A program made the translations under genes and the position numbers. Under the pieces are notes generated by a model. It made no database searches, was not told the DNA's origin, and saw only the letters and a list, made by a program, of their open reading frames with translations. Shown piece by piece: positions 10,963 to 44,901 of a DNA stretch of 64,000 bases. This DNA is from a virus (taxonomy: Duplodnaviria > Heunggongvirae > Uroviricota > Caudoviricetes). The number at the start of each line of letters is the position of its first letter. Position 1 is the stretch's first letter. The stretch is from the IMG/VR virus record IMGVR_UViG_2706794671_000006; one strand, 5' to 3'.

Positions 10963-11445
10963 ATGAATTTTATCGCTACTGTAAACGCACCCGCACATGG
11001 CAATATCGCTGTAACGTTCTCTGACATTGAAAAACGAGTACTTGGTGCATGGCGCGACAATGAGACGGTAGAACTGTCAGCACAAGAAAAATGCATTATT
11101 GCACGCGACATCATTGGCAATCGTCGTTACTCGCGGGTATTTGAGAAAGCGTATGTGGTAAATTCTGGATTCGGAACGTTCGTCTTTCCGGTGCGCTCCG
11201 GGCGATTCTGCCAGTCCAAGCTGATTGAGTTCGCTACGCAGATTTCTGTCTGGATTAAAACTCAATCGTCGTTCAAATTTTCCGACGATGAAGCAGTATC
11301 GCAGGGGATGCGGATCGCCAACAATGCAATTAAATGCAAAAACATTACGTATACCGCTGGCGTTGATACATGGAAACTGTTTTGCGCTAACTTTATGCTG
11401 AATGTATACGCAAGCAACCGCATCCACATCCTTGATGGCGTGTAA
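10963..11445 (+). CDS. hypothetical protein
   Basis: 160 aa ORF; last gene of the rightward early block. Confidence 0.55.
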   Translation: MNFIATVNAPAHGNIAVTFSDIEKRVLGAWRDNETVELSAQEKCIIARDIIGNRRYSRVFEKAYVVNSGFGTFVFPVRSGRFCQSKLIEFATQISVWIKTQSSFKFSDDEAVSQGMRIANNAIKCKNITYTAGVDTWKLFCANFMLNVYASNRIHILDGV

Positions 11446-12060
11446 CTGAGAAGAGGGCCAGTAACGGCCCTTTCTCTATAGCCACCAGATGCCGCAGGGA
11501 AATTTTCAGAAACGGCGAGGAACGTATTCATGAACCGACGGGGAACGGCCAGGATTTTTTCGGGAAACGGCTGCATTCGCCTTTATGTAGAAAAAACATC
11601 GGGAAGCTGGTGGAATCCAACCAGCGGTTGTCGGACAGGTGAGCGGGGAAAATTATGATGACTTTCGTCGCCTGAGACATCCAGATTTCTTTCGTAGCGT
11701 AATCGCATACGTGATTAAGTGGTGTGATTATGTGAAAAATCACGCGCACATAATACGCGAGCGGATACGGAACAAAACAAAATGCCGATCCGCGCCGACA
11801 AATAAACGCGGATCACATAGCAAGACTAAAAGCCAATGATTAACCATACTCTATAGCGCAATATAACGTGTTTTAAGCGCGTTAATGTGTTAAGTAATGG
11901 GTATGTACTGACAAGGATATAAAAGCGCGTCTATGGCGTTATTTTGGCGCTTATTTTTATGTTGTTGGAGTGAGTTAAAGACAATAAAAACGCGCCATCA
12001 TTGGCGCGTTATGGTAGGTGTATTGGAAACGAAAAAAGCGCCCATAGTGGGCGCTCGATT

Positions 12061-12291
12061 TTATTTGTGTAAACTGATTTTAAATCCCATTTCGACAAAC
12101 GCTTTTAACATTAAAAATATATCAGCGTCGTTCACGTCTGCTTTTTTTCGCTCCTGGTCGCTCAATAAGTCAATTTTGCGCGTCGTTTCATCTATAAGCT
12201 CGACTGCGCGCCCAGCGTAACCAGCGATCCCAGCGATGCGATTAACATAATATTCATTATGGACGTTAACGCCAGCGATAAGAACAAACAT
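12061..12291 (-). CDS. hypothetical protein
   Basis: 76 aa ORF in AT-rich minus-strand cluster; hairpin GCGCCCATAGTGGGCGC directly 3'. Confidence 0.45.
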   Translation of the reverse strand: MFVLIAGVNVHNEYYVNRIAGIAGYAGRAVELIDETTRKIDLLSDQERKKADVNDADIFLMLKAFVEMGFKISLHK

Positions 12292-12312
12292 GATTAAGCT
12301 CCTTAAAAAAAA

Positions 12313-12516
12313 TTAAATAGAATTTTGAAGTTTTCCGATTAATGCGCTTAAACGTAAGTATTCACGTTTGCGCTTGCAATCTCGCTTGCTGTTAAGCAAA
12401 TCAGAAAACGTAAAATTTAATTGGTCGCGTTGCGCGATCAAATCATCGATTAATTCTAGTTTATAAGCGCGATACTTTGCGCGATATTCCGCGCGGATCT
12501 TGTCATAGCTGACCAT
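12313..12516 (-). CDS. hypothetical basic small protein
   Basis: Start set at MVSYDK with AAGGAG RBS; 67 aa. Confidence 0.45.
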   Translation of the reverse strand: MVSYDKIRAEYRAKYRAYKLELIDDLIAQRDQLNFTFSDLLNSKRDCKRKREYLRLSALIGKLQNSI

Positions 12517-12564
12517 CTTTAAAGCTCCTTTAAAGCGCCCACTATGGGCGCTTAATTCCATTAA

Positions 12565-13215
12565 TTACGCTTTGAAAGCGTCAGCTAAATAATTGTAGAA
12601 ATCATTTTTAATGAAGCGATATTGCTGAGTACCAGCTTTTGCGATCCCAGCTCCTTTGACTTTTTCAACAAGTCCAAGACGTTCGCAAAGATTGATCAAC
12701 TGGTTGGCTTGAGTATAGCCAGCGTCCAATTTAATCTCACACGCTTTTTTAGCTTCATTCATTAAATCGAAAACAGCGCCATTGGTGAACGTGTCGATCT
12801 CGTCGTTAATCATATCGATTAAAGCAAATACACGAGATCCAGACATATCAGCGATGGAATAAACGCATTTACCAGATTTAATTGATTTAACCAGATAAAC
12901 CAGTTTTTCCAGTGAATAACTATTAGTCATTGCATCACGGAAAAATACTTCTGGCGCTTGTTTGCTTGCTTTAATCGCATAGTAGAAAACAGAGCATAAT
13001 TTTTCGTCTTCTACTGCGTTTACGACGTTGTTGATGAAGTAAGCAAGTTTAGTGGTCGCAGCTTGCATATTTGCTTTGTCTGCTTTAGTGTGCGTACCAT
13101 TTTTATAATGTTCGTTATATGTTTGAGTTGCCAGATCTGCTTTTTCGCGCAGTTCGTCGGATACAATAGATGCAGCTTCAATGATGGACTTTTTAGAAAT
13201 GATAATGTTAGCCAT
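12565..13215 (-). CDS. hypothetical protein
   Basis: 216 aa ORF, AT-rich codon usage distinct from neighbours. Confidence 0.55.
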   Translation of the reverse strand: MANIIISKKSIIEAASIVSDELREKADLATQTYNEHYKNGTHTKADKANMQAATTKLAYFINNVVNAVEDEKLCSVFYYAIKASKQAPEVFFRDAMTNSYSLEKLVYLVKSIKSGKCVYSIADMSGSRVFALIDMINDEIDTFTNGAVFDLMNEAKKACEIKLDAGYTQANQLINLCERLGLVEKVKGAGIAKAGTQQYRFIKNDFYNYLADAFKA

Positions 13216-13512
13216 GATTTTATTCCTTAGTATAAATATTAAAATTTAACTCAAGAAAGAAAGTGTTTTGCACTCGTTCCTGATGCGTTCAATTATCGAT
13301 ACGCGAAAAAAGATTGCAAGTGTTTTTTTAAGTTTTTTTGCAGGGATGAAAGTCCTAGAAATAAATGTTAGATCGTCGAGGGTGTTCCCTAAATAAATAA
13401 TCGATTCCGGCTTTAGACCTTATATATTTATACGGGGTAGAATTGAAAGAGTATAAAATGAATGGCATGTAAAATAATAACCGGACTTAGCCGGTTATTA
13501 CCCTTATAGAAA

Positions 13513-14034
13513 TTAAAACGGAAGGATTCGTTCAACCCAATCGAAGAAAATAAGTATTTTTCTACCGTCTTCCAACTTAAGTGTGACTAGACAGGCGTCA
13601 ACGCCATCTGACGTTCCCTCAATTTCGCGACCGTCTGCCATGTAGACCCTTATAGATTTGCCGTTTTGGTAAGCCTGACGACATATCTTAAAAAAGTCAC
13701 GACGTGATGGCTGATTAACCATCTGTTCATTGTTTAGCGTTAGTCGACCTGTGAATGAAGTGTCAACCTCTTCTATGCCCGACTCAATTGTGCTAATGCG
13801 CTCAAGAGGGAGCCTTATACGATTTGTGTTGCTAAGCGGATCTGGTGTGAGGTTCAGCTTATTTCTTGCGCTCAATAGCCCGTAGACATACATGCAAAAC
13901 ACTTGGCCGTCTTCGAGAGTGACTCTTACAGGAAATTTTGCACTCCGCCAGAAGAGCAAGGTACGTTCAGCATGTTCGTAGTCTCGCGGCCATACTTCAG
14001 CCGGTATGCCGTAGGTGATGTCCAATGTTCTCAT
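13513..14034 (-). CDS. hypothetical cytoplasmic protein, translationally coupled to upstream secreted-protein gene
   Basis: 173 aa; ATGA start/stop overlap with 14031-14624. Confidence 0.55.
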   Translation of the reverse strand: MRTLDITYGIPAEVWPRDYEHAERTLLFWRSAKFPVRVTLEDGQVFCMYVYGLLSARNKLNLTPDPLSNTNRIRLPLERISTIESGIEEVDTSFTGRLTLNNEQMVNQPSRRDFFKICRQAYQNGKSIRVYMADGREIEGTSDGVDACLVTLKLEDGRKILIFFDWVERILPF

Positions 14035-14624
14035 TCTGATACTCTTAGAGGTGTTTTCAGCAACCCAAATTTAAATTCTTTGTTACCAACGACAAAGAAG
14101 GGAACCTCAACATAGATTTTTTTATCGACGGATTTAGAGTTCGCTGTTTTCTGTATGTCACGAACGATACGTTTTGAGGTATTTTCATCGATAAACAATA
14201 CCTTTCCACTTGTATTCCCTTCAGCCTTGGCGTAAGTAACGATAGGCTCTTCATTGCCAACCCTAATGTTTACTTGGCAACCTGTTGTAGCCATTTCATC
14301 ACAGTAAAGTGTGCCGTCTTGAACTTCCAAAACAATTCCAGATGGCTTCATGGCTTCGTCAGAGCTTACATTAACGTTTTCTGGTACAGCGGTTCCGTTA
14401 ATTTGCAACCGTAATCTTTCTTTTCCTGCATTAAGTATTGTTTCTTCTGCGTTATCTGAGAATCTGAACCAGACTGGTTGAATCAGACCTCGTGATTCGT
14501 ATTTTAGTACGTCTTCAGAAGTATACATGCTGTACGTTTTTTGCATGTCGGAGACGATATCTGACAACGCATTGGCGGAAAATGACGAGAGGTATATACA
14601 AGCAAGAAGTAACGAACGTTTCAT
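14031..14624 (-). CDS. predicted secreted/periplasmic protein (Sec signal peptide, ANA cleavage motif)
   Basis: N-terminus MKRSLLLACIYLSSFSANA-LSD; 197 aa. Confidence 0.6.
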   Translation of the reverse strand: MKRSLLLACIYLSSFSANALSDIVSDMQKTYSMYTSEDVLKYESRGLIQPVWFRFSDNAEETILNAGKERLRLQINGTAVPENVNVSSDEAMKPSGIVLEVQDGTLYCDEMATTGCQVNIRVGNEEPIVTYAKAEGNTSGKVLFIDENTSKRIVRDIQKTANSKSVDKKIYVEVPFFVVGNKEFKFGLLKTPLRVSE

Positions 14625-14805
14625 TTTTATACAGCGATTATTGCAAAGTAGAATTATAAATATCCAATAGTCTCAAACGATAAGTTTTCAACTGTAAATA
14701 GCAGACGTGTTTTCTCTAAAAGCTGTGCGGCAAAGGCGTTGTTGCCGCACTCTGTCTATTAGCTCTTCAAGTCTGGCAATTCTGAAATTGACTAAGAATC
14801 CAATA

Positions 14806-15084
14806 TTACGGCAGTTTGCTTAGAATTTGCTCTAAATCTTCCTTTGTCATATTAGAGTTCTCATAGATGCGCATGATTTTCTCACGAGCCTTAGCAGAGA
14901 CTCCAACGGCAGATGAAACTTTGTCAAATTCAGCCATCGTCATCGTCTCCAGAATGGTATTGATAACTTCAGCCTTAGACATTTTGATGTTTTTTTCTTT
15001 TAGTTTCATTTGAAACTTTCCAAGTTTGTCATTGGCCTTATCGGACAATGCCACCTGACAATAAGTTGTTTTCTTTTCGCTCAT
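14806..15084 (-). CDS. hypothetical small protein downstream of helicase
   Basis: 92 aa ORF starting 3 nt after the helicase stop. Confidence 0.5.
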   Translation of the reverse strand: MSEKKTTYCQVALSDKANDKLGKFQMKLKEKNIKMSKAEVINTILETMTMAEFDKVSSAVGVSAKAREKIMRIYENSNMTKEDLEQILSKLP

Positions 15085-15086
15085 AA

Positions 15087-16646
15087 CTAATCTCGTTTCA
15101 GAACTCCAAAATCGAATGCGCCATCAATAGGCAATACACCTTCTGCAAAGCCAGGTGTGGTGTCGATGATGTGTTTTCGCTCATAAGAGTGAGACAACAG
15201 GTATTTGTTGCTAATGTCAATGAAATCAGTGATAAAACACACGTTTGCCTGATTCTTCTTGGCTCGTAAGCCACGACCGACACGCTGCCTCATTTCAACT
15301 TCTGCTTTCCCACCACCAGCAAGAATGACCGCACCAACGCTTGGCACATCAACACCGACATCCAGAATAGTCGAGCCTATTAAAACATCTATTTCTCCAG
15401 ACGCTAAACTGTTCAGCTTTGCTTGCCTTGTCGCCTGGTTAGATTCCCCATAGATGAAGTCAACTCTAAGGCCGGACTCTTTCATCATTTCCATCAGGAT
15501 TTGCCCGTGGCGTTTAAGGCGAACCAGAGTCATACAATTGAGAGAATGTTGCTTATAGAGCAATGCTTCGCGCACAATGGCCTCGTTACGTCCCAAATTA
15601 TACACGATCCCCAACTGATAAGCCTTTTGGTAGGCGGTGCTCATACCAACTCTAAAATTGAGGTGTTTGTTGGCAAGTTCGGCCTTGATTCTGGCCTCGT
15701 CTGGCTTGTAGGCAACTTTATGATAAAGGAAGTACGGCTTTGCCAGAATGCCTCGATCAATCAGATACTTTTCTGTGACTTTAATTTCAATTCGCCCGGC
15801 CACCGCCATCAGGCGCATGTTGGCTTCCGTCGAATCCTTCATGAACGGCGTGGCTGTAAGCGCCAGACGATAGTCTGCGTTCACACATAATCTGGCGATG
15901 TCATAGAAATTTGAGCCTGAAGACTCATGCGCCTCTTCCAGAATAAGAAGAGAGACACTTGAAAGGAAGCGTTTCACCAACTCCCGACGTTTGAGGTGGT
16001 AGCTTTTCTTATCTGGTGTTGCATCGCGTGGTGGTTCTTCGAGGAAACTTGCAAGAGTTTGAACTGTAGCGACGTTGATATGTCGTGATACCTGGAACTC
16101 ACCCGAGCCAATGACTCCAACCTTTTGGTCTTTTAACCACGGTTCGCCATTTTTGGCGCGGTAGTCGATGGATCTCTGGAAGTTTTCGGCCATTTGAAAC
16201 ATCAGAACAGAGCGGGTTGTTAAAAATAATGTCATTCGACCGATACGTGCAGCTGCTTTGCAGGCAACGTTAGATTTCCCGCCACCAGTAGCGATCTGCG
16301 CAATCATCATTCCCTCTCGAACCAGTGTTTCCACAGTCTGATCCTGATACGCATAATCAGGATTGTATGGGAATGGGTTAACCGCCGGATTTGGTTTACC
16401 AAGCGCCGGGGCTTTGTCTTTGCGGATATGAACACATTTGATGCCCGCCTTGTTCAAATTAGCCGCCACGGGCTTGGCAAAGCCAGCAGGGAACGAGTTT
16501 TTGCTCCAGTTGAACATTGTGCTTGTGCCCTTCCAGTCGCCAGCCTCGACTTCGTAGCTCAACATTTGCTGCACCAGTTGCTTTACCTTGTCATCTGCGC
16601 CAGAAATAAGCGCATTTACTGCGTTAGATACAATCCGAACAGTCAT
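15087..16646 (-). CDS. SF2 DExH-box helicase
   Basis: Motif I ATGGGKSNVA, motif II LEEAHE, motif III TATP, motif VI QRVGRGLRA. Confidence 0.8.
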   Translation of the reverse strand: MTVRIVSNAVNALISGADDKVKQLVQQMLSYEVEAGDWKGTSTMFNWSKNSFPAGFAKPVAANLNKAGIKCVHIRKDKAPALGKPNPAVNPFPYNPDYAYQDQTVETLVREGMMIAQIATGGGKSNVACKAAARIGRMTLFLTTRSVLMFQMAENFQRSIDYRAKNGEPWLKDQKVGVIGSGEFQVSRHINVATVQTLASFLEEPPRDATPDKKSYHLKRRELVKRFLSSVSLLILEEAHESSGSNFYDIARLCVNADYRLALTATPFMKDSTEANMRLMAVAGRIEIKVTEKYLIDRGILAKPYFLYHKVAYKPDEARIKAELANKHLNFRVGMSTAYQKAYQLGIVYNLGRNEAIVREALLYKQHSLNCMTLVRLKRHGQILMEMMKESGLRVDFIYGESNQATRQAKLNSLASGEIDVLIGSTILDVGVDVPSVGAVILAGGGKAEVEMRQRVGRGLRAKKNQANVCFITDFIDISNKYLLSHSYERKHIIDTTPGFAEGVLPIDGAFDFGVLKRD

Positions 16647-41529: not shown

Positions 41530-44500
41530 ATGTGGTACAGGGAAGGTACTATCACATTTACACAAGGCAGCAATACTCTGGTTGGTGCTGGGACAGCATG
41601 GAACGTTACGGCCAATGGTGTGTTGCCTGGCATGATTGTCGTCGCACCTGATAATAAATTGTATGAAATTAAAAGCGTAACAAATGACACAACCTTAACG
41701 TTGGTTGAAAACTATACTGGTGAAACGCAAAGTGATATACCATGTAGGATCATCACTACCTACGAAGGAGATTTGACACAGTTTAGTGCGAGATTTACGG
41801 CTCTTTTATCACGAATGTCTGGTGATGCAAAAACAGTTCGAAATTGGTTAACTGCCGTAGATGAAGTTACTCTTGAGCGAGAAGATGGCACTAATGTTAA
41901 TGTAAAACCTCTTTCTAAGATTATCGCGGAGCATAATAAGCACGTAGAATGGTATGAAAATAATACTAACGCAATTAATTCCGCAGGAGATAAAGCAAAA
42001 CAGGCTGCGGCCAGTGCGTCGGCTGCGGCGAAGAGTGCGAATCTAGCAAGCAGTAAGGCTACTCAGGCATCTAATAGTGCGTTGGATGCTACAGCGTCTA
42101 AAAATGCAGCAAATAAAAGTGCATCAAGTGCTAAAGCATCAGAAACAAGTGCTTTAGAGGCGAAGAACGCAGCTGCAATTTCTGCATCAACAGCTTCCAC
42201 TAAGGCAACAGAAGCCACAAGTTCGGCTAATGCTGCGTTGGTCTCTAAAGAGGCTGCAAAATTATCTGAAATGAATGCTGCTTCTGGTGCTGGCAGTGCA
42301 TCAACTTCTGCAAATCAGGCTAGAGAGTCGGCAAGGTCTGCGAAGACATCCGCTAATCAGGCTTCAACTTATGCGTCTGCTGCTAGAGCTTCGAAGGATG
42401 AAGCTAGCCGAAAGTCTGCTGAAGCCTCAACTAGTGCTAGTAACGCATCATCGAAATCAGCTGAATCTGCGGCTAAAGCAGAAGAAGCAAAGCAAAGCCA
42501 AACATCAGCACTTGCATCGGCAGAGCGTGCAGAGATAGCTGCTACTAGAGCAGAAAGAGCTTTGTCAGCGATATCATTACATGATGCCAGTTTGACTATG
42601 AAGGGTATTGTCAAATTAAGCAGTGAGACGAGCAGTTCGTCAGAAGAATTTGCAGCAACACCAAAAGCAGTAAAGGCTGCGTTTGATCTTGCTAAATCAA
42701 AATATACTGCAAATGACGCGACAACTTCACAAAAAGGGCTGGTTCAATTAAGTAGCGATACAAATAACGCCTCTGAATCATTGGCCGCAACAACAAAAGC
42801 GGTTAAAAGTGTAAAGGATCTTGCTGATAGAAAAGCAGCAATCAACAGCCCAGCATTTACTGGCACACCAACGGCACCAACGGCGACTCAAGGCACTAAT
42901 AATACGCAAATTGCCACAACTGCTTATGTAAGAGAAGCGATCTCAGGTCTTGTAGGATCATCACCTGAAGCGCTTGATACTCTTAATGAGTTGGCAAGGG
43001 CTTTGGGTGATGATCCCGATTTTGCCACAACAATGACGAACAAGTTGGCCACAAAACAACCTCTTGATGCTACGCTGACTGCACTGGCTGGACTAACAAC
43101 AGCCGCTAATAAACTTCCTTATTTTACAGGGAATGATACAGCTGGATTAGCAACAATAACTTCTGTTGGTCGAGATATTCTTTCTAAAGCAAGTGTACAG
43201 GCGATTATTCAGTATCTTGGATTGAAGGAAAATGGAACAAGTGGCGATAAAATACCTTTATTGAGTACAGCCAATACATGGAGTGCAAAGCAAACATTTA
43301 GTAATGGTCTTGCAGGCTCACTTAACGGAAATTCCGATACCGCAACAAAATTAAAAGCAGCACGAAAAATTGGCGGAGTACCGTTTGATGGTTCATCAGA
43401 TATAAATCTACCAGGTGTAAACTCAACAGGAACTCAGAGTACTAGTGGAAACGCTGCCTCTGCCACTAAGTTAGCAACACCTCGTTCAATTGGTGGAATG
43501 TTATTTGACGGCACTGCAAATATTGACTTACCAGGCGTTAACAAGGTTGGAAATCAGAGTACAACAGGTAATGCAGGGAGCGCAACGAGACTGCAAACGG
43601 CAAGAACAATAGGTGGGGTATCGTTTAATGGCACTGCAAATATTGACTTACCTGGTGTCAATAAAGCTGGAAATCAGAACACGTCAGGTAATGCTGCAAC
43701 GGCGACAAAACTTGCAACGGCACGAAAAATAAATGGGGTCAGTTTTGATGGCTCAAAGAATATAAGCATCACGCCAAAACAACTAGGTGCAGCAAAATAT
43801 GTTGCTAATCTTGCTACGGGGAATACTCAAGAGTGGACAACTGCACAATTTGTCGCATGGTTAAATTCACAAGGGGCATTTGATGCAACTCAGTGGAGCA
43901 CACGTTGTAGCTGGTCTTATGGTAGTAACTGTTATATAGGAAATGCATCAACGGGATGTGGAGTTATACCTCTTGCTGGTTCTGTTATTGAGGTGTTTTC
44001 AACCGGTACAAGTAATTACACTATACGCATTACAACACCTTCAACATCTGGAGGTGCATCTGGTGCTGTTCTTAATAGTGAGTTTATTTATACATACAAC
44101 GGCGATAACTATAGCCCAACATGGCGTCGTAATTACAGTTCTCAAAATAAACCAACGGCTTCAGAGATAGGCGCCCTTGCCTCAAATGGAAATGCAGTTT
44201 CGGCTACGAAACTGAAAACAGCGAGAAATATAGGGGGGGTATCGTTTGATGGTACAGCGAATATAGATTTACCAGGCGTTAACAAAGCTGGAAATCAGAA
44301 CACATCAGGTAATGCTGCAACAGCTACTAAATTAAAAACATCAAGAACAATAGGTGGAGTATCATTTGATGGTAGCGCAAACATTAATCTTCCAGGTGTG
44401 AATACGTCAGGAAATCAGAATACATCTGGTAACGCAGCATCAGCAACTAAGCTACAAACAGCACGTACTATAAATGGAGTAAGTTTCGACGGAACAAAAA

Positions 44501-44901
44501 ATATTAGTATAAGTGCCGCTCAAATTGGTGCTTTGCCTATCGGTGGGGGTACGATAACAGGTAATTTGACTGTAAATGGAAATGGCTCATTTAATGATGT
44601 TCAGATCCGCTCAGATAAGCGTAACAAGCGTAATCTGGTAAAGCTAGATAATGCGTTAGATCGTTTGGAGGCACTTACTGGTTATCTTTATGAAATCCAA
44701 CTCTCTGATGATAGTTGGAAAACGTCAGTTGGTTTAATTGCTCAGGATGCACAAAAAGCATTGTCTGAACTGGTAACTGAAGACACAGACGTTATATCTG
44801 GTGAAAAACGTCTGTGTCTTAACTACAACGGCATAATTGCATTGTTAGTCGAGGGCTTTAAAACACTTCGTCATGAGATTAAAGAACTTCGGGAGAAGTA
44901 A
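41530..44901 (+). CDS. tail fibre protein with C-terminal intramolecular chaperone (peptidase S74-like) domain
   Basis: Ala/Ser-rich region, six to seven ~38-aa repeats (ATKL.TAR.IGGVSFDG..NI.LPGVN..GNQ.TSGNAA), C-terminal RSDKRNKRNLVKLDNALDRLEALTGYLYEIQ. Confidence 0.75.
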   Translation: MWYREGTITFTQGSNTLVGAGTAWNVTANGVLPGMIVVAPDNKLYEIKSVTNDTTLTLVENYTGETQSDIPCRIITTYEGDLTQFSARFTALLSRMSGDAKTVRNWLTAVDEVTLEREDGTNVNVKPLSKIIAEHNKHVEWYENNTNAINSAGDKAKQAAASASAAAKSANLASSKATQASNSALDATASKNAANKSASSAKASETSALEAKNAAAISASTASTKATEATSSANAALVSKEAAKLSEMNAASGAGSASTSANQARESARSAKTSANQASTYASAARASKDEASRKSAEASTSASNASSKSAESAAKAEEAKQSQTSALASAERAEIAATRAERALSAISLHDASLTMKGIVKLSSETSSSSEEFAATPKAVKAAFDLAKSKYTANDATTSQKGLVQLSSDTNNASESLAATTKAVKSVKDLADRKAAINSPAFTGTPTAPTATQGTNNTQIATTAYVREAISGLVGSSPEALDTLNELARALGDDPDFATTMTNKLATKQPLDATLTALAGLTTAANKLPYFTGNDTAGLATITSVGRDILSKASVQAIIQYLGLKENGTSGDKIPLLSTANTWSAKQTFSNGLAGSLNGNSDTATKLKAARKIGGVPFDGSSDINLPGVNSTGTQSTSGNAASATKLATPRSIGGMLFDGTANIDLPGVNKVGNQSTTGNAGSATRLQTARTIGGVSFNGTANIDLPGVNKAGNQNTSGNAATATKLATARKINGVSFDGSKNISITPKQLGAAKYVANLATGNTQEWTTAQFVAWLNSQGAFDATQWSTRCSWSYGSNCYIGNASTGCGVIPLAGSVIEVFSTGTSNYTIRITTPSTSGGASGAVLNSEFIYTYNGDNYSPTWRRNYSSQNKPTASEIGALASNGNAVSATKLKTARNIGGVSFDGTANIDLPGVNKAGNQNTSGNAATATKLKTSRTIGGVSFDGSANINLPGVNTSGNQNTSGNAASATKLQTARTINGVSFDGTKNISISAAQIGALPIGGGTITGNLTVNGNGSFNDVQIRSDKRNKRNLVKLDNALDRLEALTGYLYEIQLSDDSWKTSVGLIAQDAQKALSELVTEDTDVISGEKRLCLNYNGIIALLVEGFKTLRHEIKELREK

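Follow-up and report, generated by a model that had tools for sequence, protein, structure and literature searches.

A FljA-family gene with divergent alleles and a variable exported-protein neighbour in SSU5/pHCM2/pMT1-type phage-plasmids

The characterised FljA proteins block the translation of fliC messenger RNA (mRNA), and a plasmid-borne fljA(z66) turned motile E. coli non-motile (PMC2652032). Members of the family have also been annotated on phage-plasmids, where the pHCM2 copy (P0052) is described as 'flagellar synthesis: repressor of fliC' and SSU5_121 as 'putative repressor of phase 1 flagellin'. Here, we describe a FljA-like gene in a 64,000-nucleotide (nt) stretch of Caudoviricetes DNA (IMG/VR record IMGVR_UViG_2706794671_000006), the whole of which we call the window. 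The gene belongs to a cluster of five leftward genes at 12061-14624, which the original prediction, made from the letters alone, had taken for an AT-rich group of horizontally acquired morons in which a secreted protein is coupled to a cytoplasmic partner. We tentatively read the cytoplasmic protein as an RNA-binding translational repressor, for which the leader of the adjacent 216-amino-acid (aa) gene would be the best target candidate, with a 197-aa secreted protein as an accessory and two small genes as cassettes at hairpins. Built on sequence comparison and a structural model, this reading has, in our estimate, a chance of being right that falls just short of even.

A FljA-family gene in the phage-plasmid backbone

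The FljA-like gene (13513-14034, minus strand) encodes a protein of 173 aa, a member of the FljA family (PF03614, Flag1_repress) within a clade of phage-plasmid proteins. Its residues 5-170 align with positions 1-170 of the 170 in the Pfam profile, scoring 230.5 bits against a cut-off of 24 (E 1.4e-68), and the protein also matches phrog_1444 (E 1.1e-89). The FljA encoded directly behind the flagellin gene of Salmonella plasmid CP022660.1 is 36% identical to the window protein over 168 aa (E 1e-36), and the two have in common the motifs DI(T/S)YG..AE(V/I)WPRDY, PSRRD(F/Y)F.IC and DWV.RI. A profile search separated two clades with nothing between them: the phage-plasmid proteins, which are named 'transcriptional regulator' and are 48-100% identical to the window protein, and the flagellin-linked FljA proteins of Salmonella, E. 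coli, Citrobacter and Atlantibacter, at 34-41%. The window protein is without a helix-turn-helix motif. Over the aligned residues 5-173 it is 100% identical to the allele of phage PhiR41_1, which grows on E. coli K-12.

In the predicted structure, a model of medium confidence, the protein forms two tandem Sm/Hfq-like modules, with the N-terminal helix and the strongly bent five-stranded beta-sheet that follow one another in this fold. A small RNA-binding barrel of the kind modelled here fits the post-transcriptional action of the FljA family. A search of PDB sequences with the FljA-like profile returned no match.

Among phage records, a megablast search with 11500-15100 found SSU5-like phages, namely Escherichia phages CMS-2020a, PhiR41_1 and Cyrano and Salmonella phage SSU5. 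In addition, Shigella sonnei plasmids of ~108 kb are 100% identical across 13300-14800, a stretch with matches in 441 plasmid records, nearly all of them non-mobilizable and ~100-120 kb long. Because the region matches both phages and plasmids, we assign the segment to an SSU5/pHCM2/pMT1-type phage-plasmid; judged by its relatives it is mostly conserved backbone, and we reject an island of five morons.

By tblastn, the FljA-like gene is present in 831 plasmid records and full length in 821 of them, nearly all ~100-115 kb and non-mobilizable, with Klebsiella (341), Escherichia (229), Enterobacter (92), Yersinia (62), Salmonella (60), Citrobacter (27) and Shigella (6) as the genera. We surveyed 90 loci taken from annotated relatives, IMG/VR contigs and GTDB genomes, and all of them, the SSU5, Y. 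pestis pMT1-type and S. Typhi pHCM2-type elements included, have the same order: helicase and 92-aa gene first, next a variable slot, the FljA-like gene and the 216-aa gene, with one or both of the 67-aa and 76-aa genes at the end. Genes held in an invariant order are therefore backbone genes and not recent morons, whatever their AT content. Indeed, the presence/absence polymorphism among syntenic relatives that would mark a moron is seen for the 197-aa gene, while the FljA-like and 216-aa genes are universal. A flagellin gene is absent from all 90 loci, and the gene upstream in the window is that of the 197-aa secreted protein. Two records with Firmicutes labels, L011 (JAEWTL010000044.1, 'MAG: Bacillota bacterium') and P0094 ('Gemella morbillorum'), have a typical enterobacterial SSU5-like backbone, the L011 helicase being 93% identical to that of the window; their labels probably reflect mis-binning or contamination.

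The composition of the region had suggested acquisition. The cluster is AT-rich, as had been noted, with a guanine-cytosine (GC) fraction of 0.395 across 12061-14624 against 0.453 for the window, which puts it in the lowest 1.1% among stretches of the same size. However, the FljA-like gene itself, at 0.458, is not AT-rich, and the low GC at this region is a property of the backbone.

The FljA-like gene is universal yet allelically hypervariable. E. coli elements whose helicases are at least 98% identical carry five FljA-like classes (100, 93, 84, 75-77 and 67% identity), and in these elements the 216-aa gene is 94-100% identical. Between FljA-like genes, pairwise synonymous divergence (dS) is 0.38-1.3 and non-synonymous divergence (dN) 0.13-0.25, with their ratio omega at 0.1-0.34, against a dS of 0.05-0.2 for the flanking helicase and 216-aa gene. 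Two elements of another lineage show a like pattern, with a helicase dS of 0.008 and a FljA-like dN of 0.21. The omega values indicate purifying selection on the FljA-like gene, and we take its alleles to be old, subject to that selection and exchanged into young backbones. The divergent tract extends from about position +50 of the FljA-like open reading frame (ORF) through to the ATG of the 216-aa gene.

The leader of the 216-aa gene and the candidate targets

The divergent tract ends at a gene with a structured leader. The 216-aa backbone protein (12565-13215, minus strand; phrog_1513) has no Pfam match and no PDB sequence match, and its gene lies directly downstream of the FljA-like gene in 86 of the 86 loci with the flank available. 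A sigma-70-like promoter (TTGCAA, 16 nt, GATAAT; 13292-13319, minus strand) precedes it; the -35 and -10 elements are conserved across lineages, reading CTTGCA or CTTGAT and then CGATAAT in the relatives. At about +1 stands a conserved leader element, CAUCG-AA-AGCG-AACA-CGCU-AA-CGAUA, predicted to fold with a 2x2 internal loop between an outer stem of 4 bp and an inner one of 3-4 bp. The consensus of this hairpin is CAUCGAAAGCGAACACGCUAACGAUA, and the promoter and the position of the hairpin are common to the 86 loci. Pairing holds in 92% of cells with the predicted partners and drops to 13-42% if these are slid along. The consensus motif of the other lineages is absent from the window, which has its own sequence variant in a predicted two-stem hairpin of the same architecture (13249-13286, minus strand).

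Among the E. coli elements, the FljA-like classes correspond one-to-one with leader types, and the 216-aa coding sequence is common to several classes. This mapping fits a regulator/operator pair; it fits plain linkage too. A second copy of the leader motif in the window, at 42136-42152 with two mismatches, was set aside as chance: it lies inside the Ala/Ser-rich repeats of a 1123-aa ORF (41530-44901), which probably encodes a tail fibre.

In the mechanism that we favour, the FljA-like protein would bind an mRNA 5' leader and block its translation, as the characterised FljA proteins do. As a candidate target we put forward the structured leader of the neighbouring 216-aa gene, in which case every FljA-like allele would be matched in specificity to its own leader. 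Host fliC mRNA may be an alternative or additional target in flagellate hosts, and the accessory 197-aa gene would provide a Sec-exported periplasmic beta-sandwich, translated in tandem with the regulator through an ATGA overlap. A target within the element seems more likely because the gene is under purifying selection in non-flagellate hosts and its alleles have diversified within one host species. What the comparisons show is the membership of the family, its distribution, the synteny, the coupling of the genes, the hypervariable alleles and the conserved leader and hairpin; that the FljA-like protein binds RNA, which target it has and whether it confers a phenotype are things that we infer.

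Several points weigh against this mechanism. Covariation in the leader is modest, with 3 of 8 pairs compensatory and the innermost pair open in 10 of 21 sequences. Moreover, nearly the same leader hairpin recurs in several FljA-like clusters with less than 90% identity between them, which argues against a strict lock-and-key relation. Simple linkage in one recombination tract of ~800 bp can explain the co-divergence of the FljA-like gene and the leader, and the hairpin could act as an operator in the DNA or as a 5' stem that stabilises the mRNA, with no relation to the FljA-like protein. As for the fold, its assignment comes from the medium-confidence model: the Pfam LSM (E 0.081) and Hfq (E 0.087) matches, which would have revealed Sm1/Sm2 motifs, both fall far below their gathering scores, and neither BLASTP nor hhalign gives a significant internal repeat between the two halves of the protein, so the tandem repeat is a structural prediction only. 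Finally, the precedent set by the family is a fliC target.

From this precedent follows the alternative that survives best, in which the FljA-like protein binds the 5' untranslated region (UTR) of fliC and flagellin synthesis stops, the 197-aa protein being an unrelated passenger. The benefit to the element would be energy saving, the hiding of a TLR5/NAIP ligand or the blocking of flagellotropic phages. Repression of fliC translation is the only activity demonstrated in the family, and it was the fljA(z66) plasmid that abolished E. coli motility (PMC2652032); the window protein is a member by its profile match and its conserved motifs, and the pHCM2 copy and SSU5_121 are annotated as flagellin repressors. 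However, the gene is full length and under purifying selection in hosts that are non-flagellate (Klebsiella, 341 records; Y. pestis, 62; Shigella, 6), its clade stands apart from every flagellin-linked FljA (34-41% identity), and no flagellin gene is linked to it in the 90 loci. Five deeply diverged alleles in near-identical E. coli backbones are also hard to square with one conserved host leader. On balance we consider a shut-off of host flagellin unlikely, yet a serious rival. In a comparison of the 216-aa gene leader with the E. coli fliC 5' UTR and a fljB-type leader, only the Shine-Dalgarno/ATG context was in common. The original prediction had stated that homologues with a demonstrated housekeeping phage function would refute it; the characterised relatives go half of the way, as they do have a demonstrated function, the repression of flagellin mRNA (PMC2652032), but this is directed at the host and is not phage housekeeping.

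It is tempting to carry the proposal of a repressor acting on the 216-aa gene leader further, although we hold this extension to be decidedly improbable. The tandem-Sm repressor and the leader would then form a specificity module at the RNA level, its deeply diverged alleles would correspond to immunity-like or incompatibility-like groups, Salmonella and E. coli would have domesticated an offshoot of this repressor as their flagellar phase-variation regulator FljA, and the slot and the cassettes would serve as cargo sites.

The exported-protein slot and the hairpin cassettes

The 197-aa protein (14031-14624, minus strand; phrog_18942) belongs to an orphan family. Its signal peptide covers residues 1-19 (14568-14624), with MKRSLLLACIYLSSFSANA before the cleavage site and LSD after it. 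A Sec signal had been predicted and is well supported by the homologues, which keep the hydrophobic core and the site, A-x-A followed by (L/V/I)SD, down to 46% identity; from this conservation we take the export signal to be of the Sec (signal peptidase I) type and not a lipobox. A lipoprotein reading based on LLAC at residues 6-9 was rejected, as the Cys is too near the N-terminus and Cys9 is not conserved. The structural model (predicted local distance difference test score 68, residues 70-190 well predicted) shows a beta-sandwich in the mature part, and two cysteines, C108 and C116, are invariant in the family. This family amounts to 15 clusters in a collection of 5.8 billion proteins, and its profile found 8 matches only among 1.84 billion representatives. 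The protein matches no named family in Pfam or PHROG, its structural matches are weak and of a generic beta-sandwich kind, and PADLOC, run on six proteins, gave no match.

The stop of the 197-aa gene and the start of the FljA-like gene overlap in an ATGA at 14031-14034 (tcat on the plus strand), as had been predicted, and no terminator lies between the two genes. In 20 of 20 loci, from E. coli, Klebsiella and Salmonella elements, the stop overlaps the start by 4 or 1 nt, at 46-100% identity. The coupling of a secreted protein to a cytoplasmic one is thus real at the level of the genes, but the partner is a FljA-family protein and is also present without the 197-aa gene. The latter is found in 65 plasmid records against the 831 with the FljA-like gene (~8%), and in 20 of the 90 loci. 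Of the cluster it alone can, on this distribution, be called a true accessory, moron-like gene, so that the claim of horizontal acquisition holds for it and fails for the other four, which are not recently acquired morons. A promoter-like site upstream of it (TGGATA, 18 nt, TG-AATAAT; 14637-14666, minus strand) is a consensus match only and would leave the gene with a very short leader.

Together with 14625-14805, the 197-aa gene occupies in the window a slot that measures 100-2900 bp and holds at least seven gene families across loci L001-L091. The slot may instead contain ~140-aa lipoproteins with weak DUF2846 similarity, 4-7 nt upstream of the FljA-like gene (SSU5, Y. pestis, Kluyvera), Sec-secreted proteins of 118-119 aa, 50-55 nt upstream of it, or divergently transcribed lipoproteins of 145 or 259-266 aa. 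Overall, an exported protein or lipoprotein from four unrelated families adjoins the FljA-like gene in 83 of the 90 loci, and in 7 loci the slot is empty (100-132 bp) and the regulator is still kept. The slot of L021 holds a 377-aa protein with a C-terminus that looks HNH-like by eye. FljA-like alleles and upstream families assort independently, an identical 197-aa allele being found with the 100% and with the 75% FljA-like allele; the link between the secreted protein and the regulator is thus not an obligate one. Loci L073-L078 have, within the ORF of a 118-aa secreted protein ahead of the FljA-like gene, a 15-nt copy of the leader motif, ACATCGAAAGCGAA, ~256 nt upstream of the FljA-like match; the copy is not statistically compelling and may be a coincidence.

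A variable exported protein that repeatedly stands beside a FljA-family gene echoes, by analogy, the fljB-fljA arrangement. One could speculate that the element substitutes surface proteins in a fljBA-like manner, with the exported protein switched on and the FljA-like protein repressing the mRNA of a competing envelope protein of the host or the element, or, in a variant, autoregulating its own operon. The gene order agrees with this, since a repressor gene comes directly after an exported surface-protein gene in fljBA and on CP022660.1, just as the FljA-like gene directly follows or faces a variable exported-protein gene in the 83 loci; the motif copy within the upstream ORF of L073-L078 would point the same way, were it statistically compelling. 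Against it, alleles and upstream families assort independently, the regulator is retained in the 7 loci with an empty slot, and no candidate for the competing host gene was identified, and we therefore regard such a substitution as very doubtful. Our scepticism is as great for the original proposal that the secreted and cytoplasmic proteins form a two-part superinfection-exclusion or receptor-masking system at the envelope, which has in its favour the export signal, the strict tail-to-head coupling in 20 of 20 loci (46-100% identity) and the presence in the slot of 83 of the 90 loci of exported proteins or lipoproteins from four unrelated families, a class that often includes phage exclusion factors such as Cor, Llp and SieA, but which has to explain why the cytoplasmic gene is kept in more than 90% of elements without the secreted gene and combines freely with other upstream genes and alleles, and which finds no similarity to any PADLOC model or named exclusion protein and no Pfam or informative PHROG match.

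At the other end of the cluster, the 64 kb contain exactly two copies of the sequence GCGCCCATAGTGGGCGC, at 12038-12054 (plus strand) and 12535-12551 (minus strand), against a chance expectation of 0.01. The terminal copy (12036-12056, minus strand), which reads GCGCCCA-CTA-TGGGCGC on the minus strand and is followed by TTTTTTCGTTTC, is the terminator that closes the cassette array, and is terminator-like on the plus strand too. It has the GC-rich hairpin and U-tract of an intrinsic terminator, a 9-bp stem followed by TTTTTTCG, and the hairpin with its TTTTTTCGTTTC context closes the array in all lineages. The internal copy (12535-12551, minus strand) has the flipped loop TAG and stands 17 nt past the end of the 216-aa gene, with TTTAAAGGAG and then the next ATG behind it, and it marks a cassette boundary; it has no U-tract and does not qualify as an intrinsic terminator. 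The GCGCCCA/TGGGCGC stems are invariant over ~160 occurrences in all lineages, even where the 216-aa protein is only ~62% identical to that of the window, and the 3-nt loop reads CTA 132 times and TAG, its exact flip, 18 times, the flipped cases being dispersed among close relatives. This exact conservation of the 14-nt stem across lineages with saturated dS could reflect a site for a protein or RNA, or concerted evolution.

The first copy of the hairpin is always 15-25 nt past the 216-aa gene, and every small-ORF cassette or cassette pair has another behind it, so spaced in loci L001-L091 that 247, 271-274, 307 or ~497 nt separate the copies. A ribosome-binding site and the next ATG follow the internal copies, and in elements without a small gene the first hairpin stands directly before the U-tract. 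From this layout we conclude that the 67-aa and 76-aa genes, which are variably present among the relatives, are cassettes inserted at the hairpin. The earlier view that one hairpin flanks the cluster in both orientations was correct in that there are two copies, but these bracket the two small genes only (12061-12516), and what had appeared as a change of orientation is a flip of the loop. The 76-aa protein (12061-12291, minus strand; phrog_1585) has its own AAGGAG ribosome-binding site, and the 67-aa protein (12313-12516, minus strand; phrog_6145) starts at the ATG at 12516 and not at 12561. An 82-aa ORF with the start at 12561 was discarded as over-extended, as the PHROG match begins at residue 16, the ATG at 12516 has an AAGGAG 8 nt ahead of it and the relatives annotate 204 bp; with the start at 12516, the second hairpin is intergenic. 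The name of phrog_6145, 'MIT family metal ion transporter', traces to SSU5_119, 'MIT family metal ion transporter CorA', a soluble protein of 67 aa, and this CorA-type name is almost certainly a misannotation.

The five leftward genes are confirmed as minus-strand ORFs (12061-12291, 12313-12561, 12565-13215, 13513-14034 and 14031-14624). They form at least three transcription units and not a single block, since a hairpin follows the FljA-like stop and a promoter-like site (13319-13292) precedes the 216-aa gene. That hairpin (13476-13499, minus strand), AATAACCGGCTAAGTCCGGTTATT and then ATTTTACA, lies just past the stop, is conserved in L022 and is likely the terminator of the 197-aa/FljA-like operon; it is followed by 4 T only and was missed by the terminator scanner. 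Another hairpin (14725-14750, minus strand) lies between the helicase/92-aa genes and the 197-aa gene, and is a possible terminator of the upstream operon. The cluster had been placed between convergent terminators, but this right-hand hairpin follows genes that are co-directional with the cluster. Across 11400-15200 there are 11 terminator-like sites where 4.0 are expected, several of them stacked at 11780-12010 in the convergent intergenic region to the left of the cluster. An Rfam scan of the same interval at E up to 1 gave three sub-threshold chance matches only, among the sub-threshold matches being one to the Hrs1 small RNA at 11982-12048, and an NCBIfam search gave no significant match.

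Comparison with known systems

Phage-plasmids of the SSU5/pHCM2/pMT1 type are widespread among Enterobacteriaceae pathogens (S. Typhi, Y. pestis, Klebsiella, E. coli and Shigella), and the control of their lysogeny and maintenance is poorly understood. A universal yet allelically hypervariable FljA-family protein is a concrete and directly testable candidate for a regulator. If its target were fliC, these elements would silence the flagella of their hosts, with consequences for motility, serotyping and innate-immune detection; if its target were an mRNA of the element, the FljA family would gain a new role and a plausible evolutionary origin. Moreover, the predicted Sm-like fold would give a structural rationale for the binding of mRNA by FljA, which no paper states in the literature searched.

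The assignment to the FljA family is already public (SSU5_121; pHCM2 'repressor of fliC'), and the gene as such is known. In the literature that we searched, no characterisation of the SSU5_121-type orthologues was found, nor any paper tying FljA to SSU5, phage-plasmids, pMT1 or the Sm fold; the single paper with both pHCM2 and fljA uses pHCM2 as a size marker only. The phage-plasmid clade in non-flagellate hosts, the tandem Sm fold and the hypervariable alleles with a co-diverging leader appear to be unreported there, as do the exported-protein slot and the cassettes bounded by hairpins.

The 197-aa protein is similar to exclusion proteins of the Cor, Llp and SieA type in being small, exported and encoded in a variable slot of a temperate element. 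However, it has no sequence similarity or convincing fold similarity to them, and it is predicted to be soluble and Sec-secreted, not a lipoprotein or membrane protein. Similarly, the FljA-like protein has no significant sequence similarity to Hfq/Sm-like (LSm) or WYL domains, and its model has two modules per chain in place of a homo-hexamer of single modules.

The closest described systems are the FljA of Salmonella enterica (fljBA), the FljA(z66) of linear plasmid pBSSB1 and the repressors of E. coli flagellin islands, with which the window protein shares PF03614 over its full length, the N-terminal, central and C-terminal motifs, and its size (173 aa against 174-179 aa). As in fljBA, the gene comes second in an operon of two, after a gene for an exported product. 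In contrast to the canonical FljA, the window protein is 34-41% identical to these and falls in a separate clade, neither a flagellin gene nor an invertase is ever linked to its gene, and the latter is a backbone gene of phage-plasmids that is also found in non-flagellate hosts. Its nearest counterparts are SSU5_121, the pHCM2 and pMT1 orthologues, CYRAN_114 and XSB42489.1 (PhiR41_1), which occupy the same syntenic position at 66-100% identity; orthologues of the SSU5_121 type already bear the annotation 'putative repressor of phase 1 flagellin' or 'transcriptional regulator'. In place of the 197-aa gene, the slots of SSU5, pHCM2, pMT1, Cyrano and PhiR41_1 hold a lipoprotein gene, a divergent lipoprotein gene or other genes.

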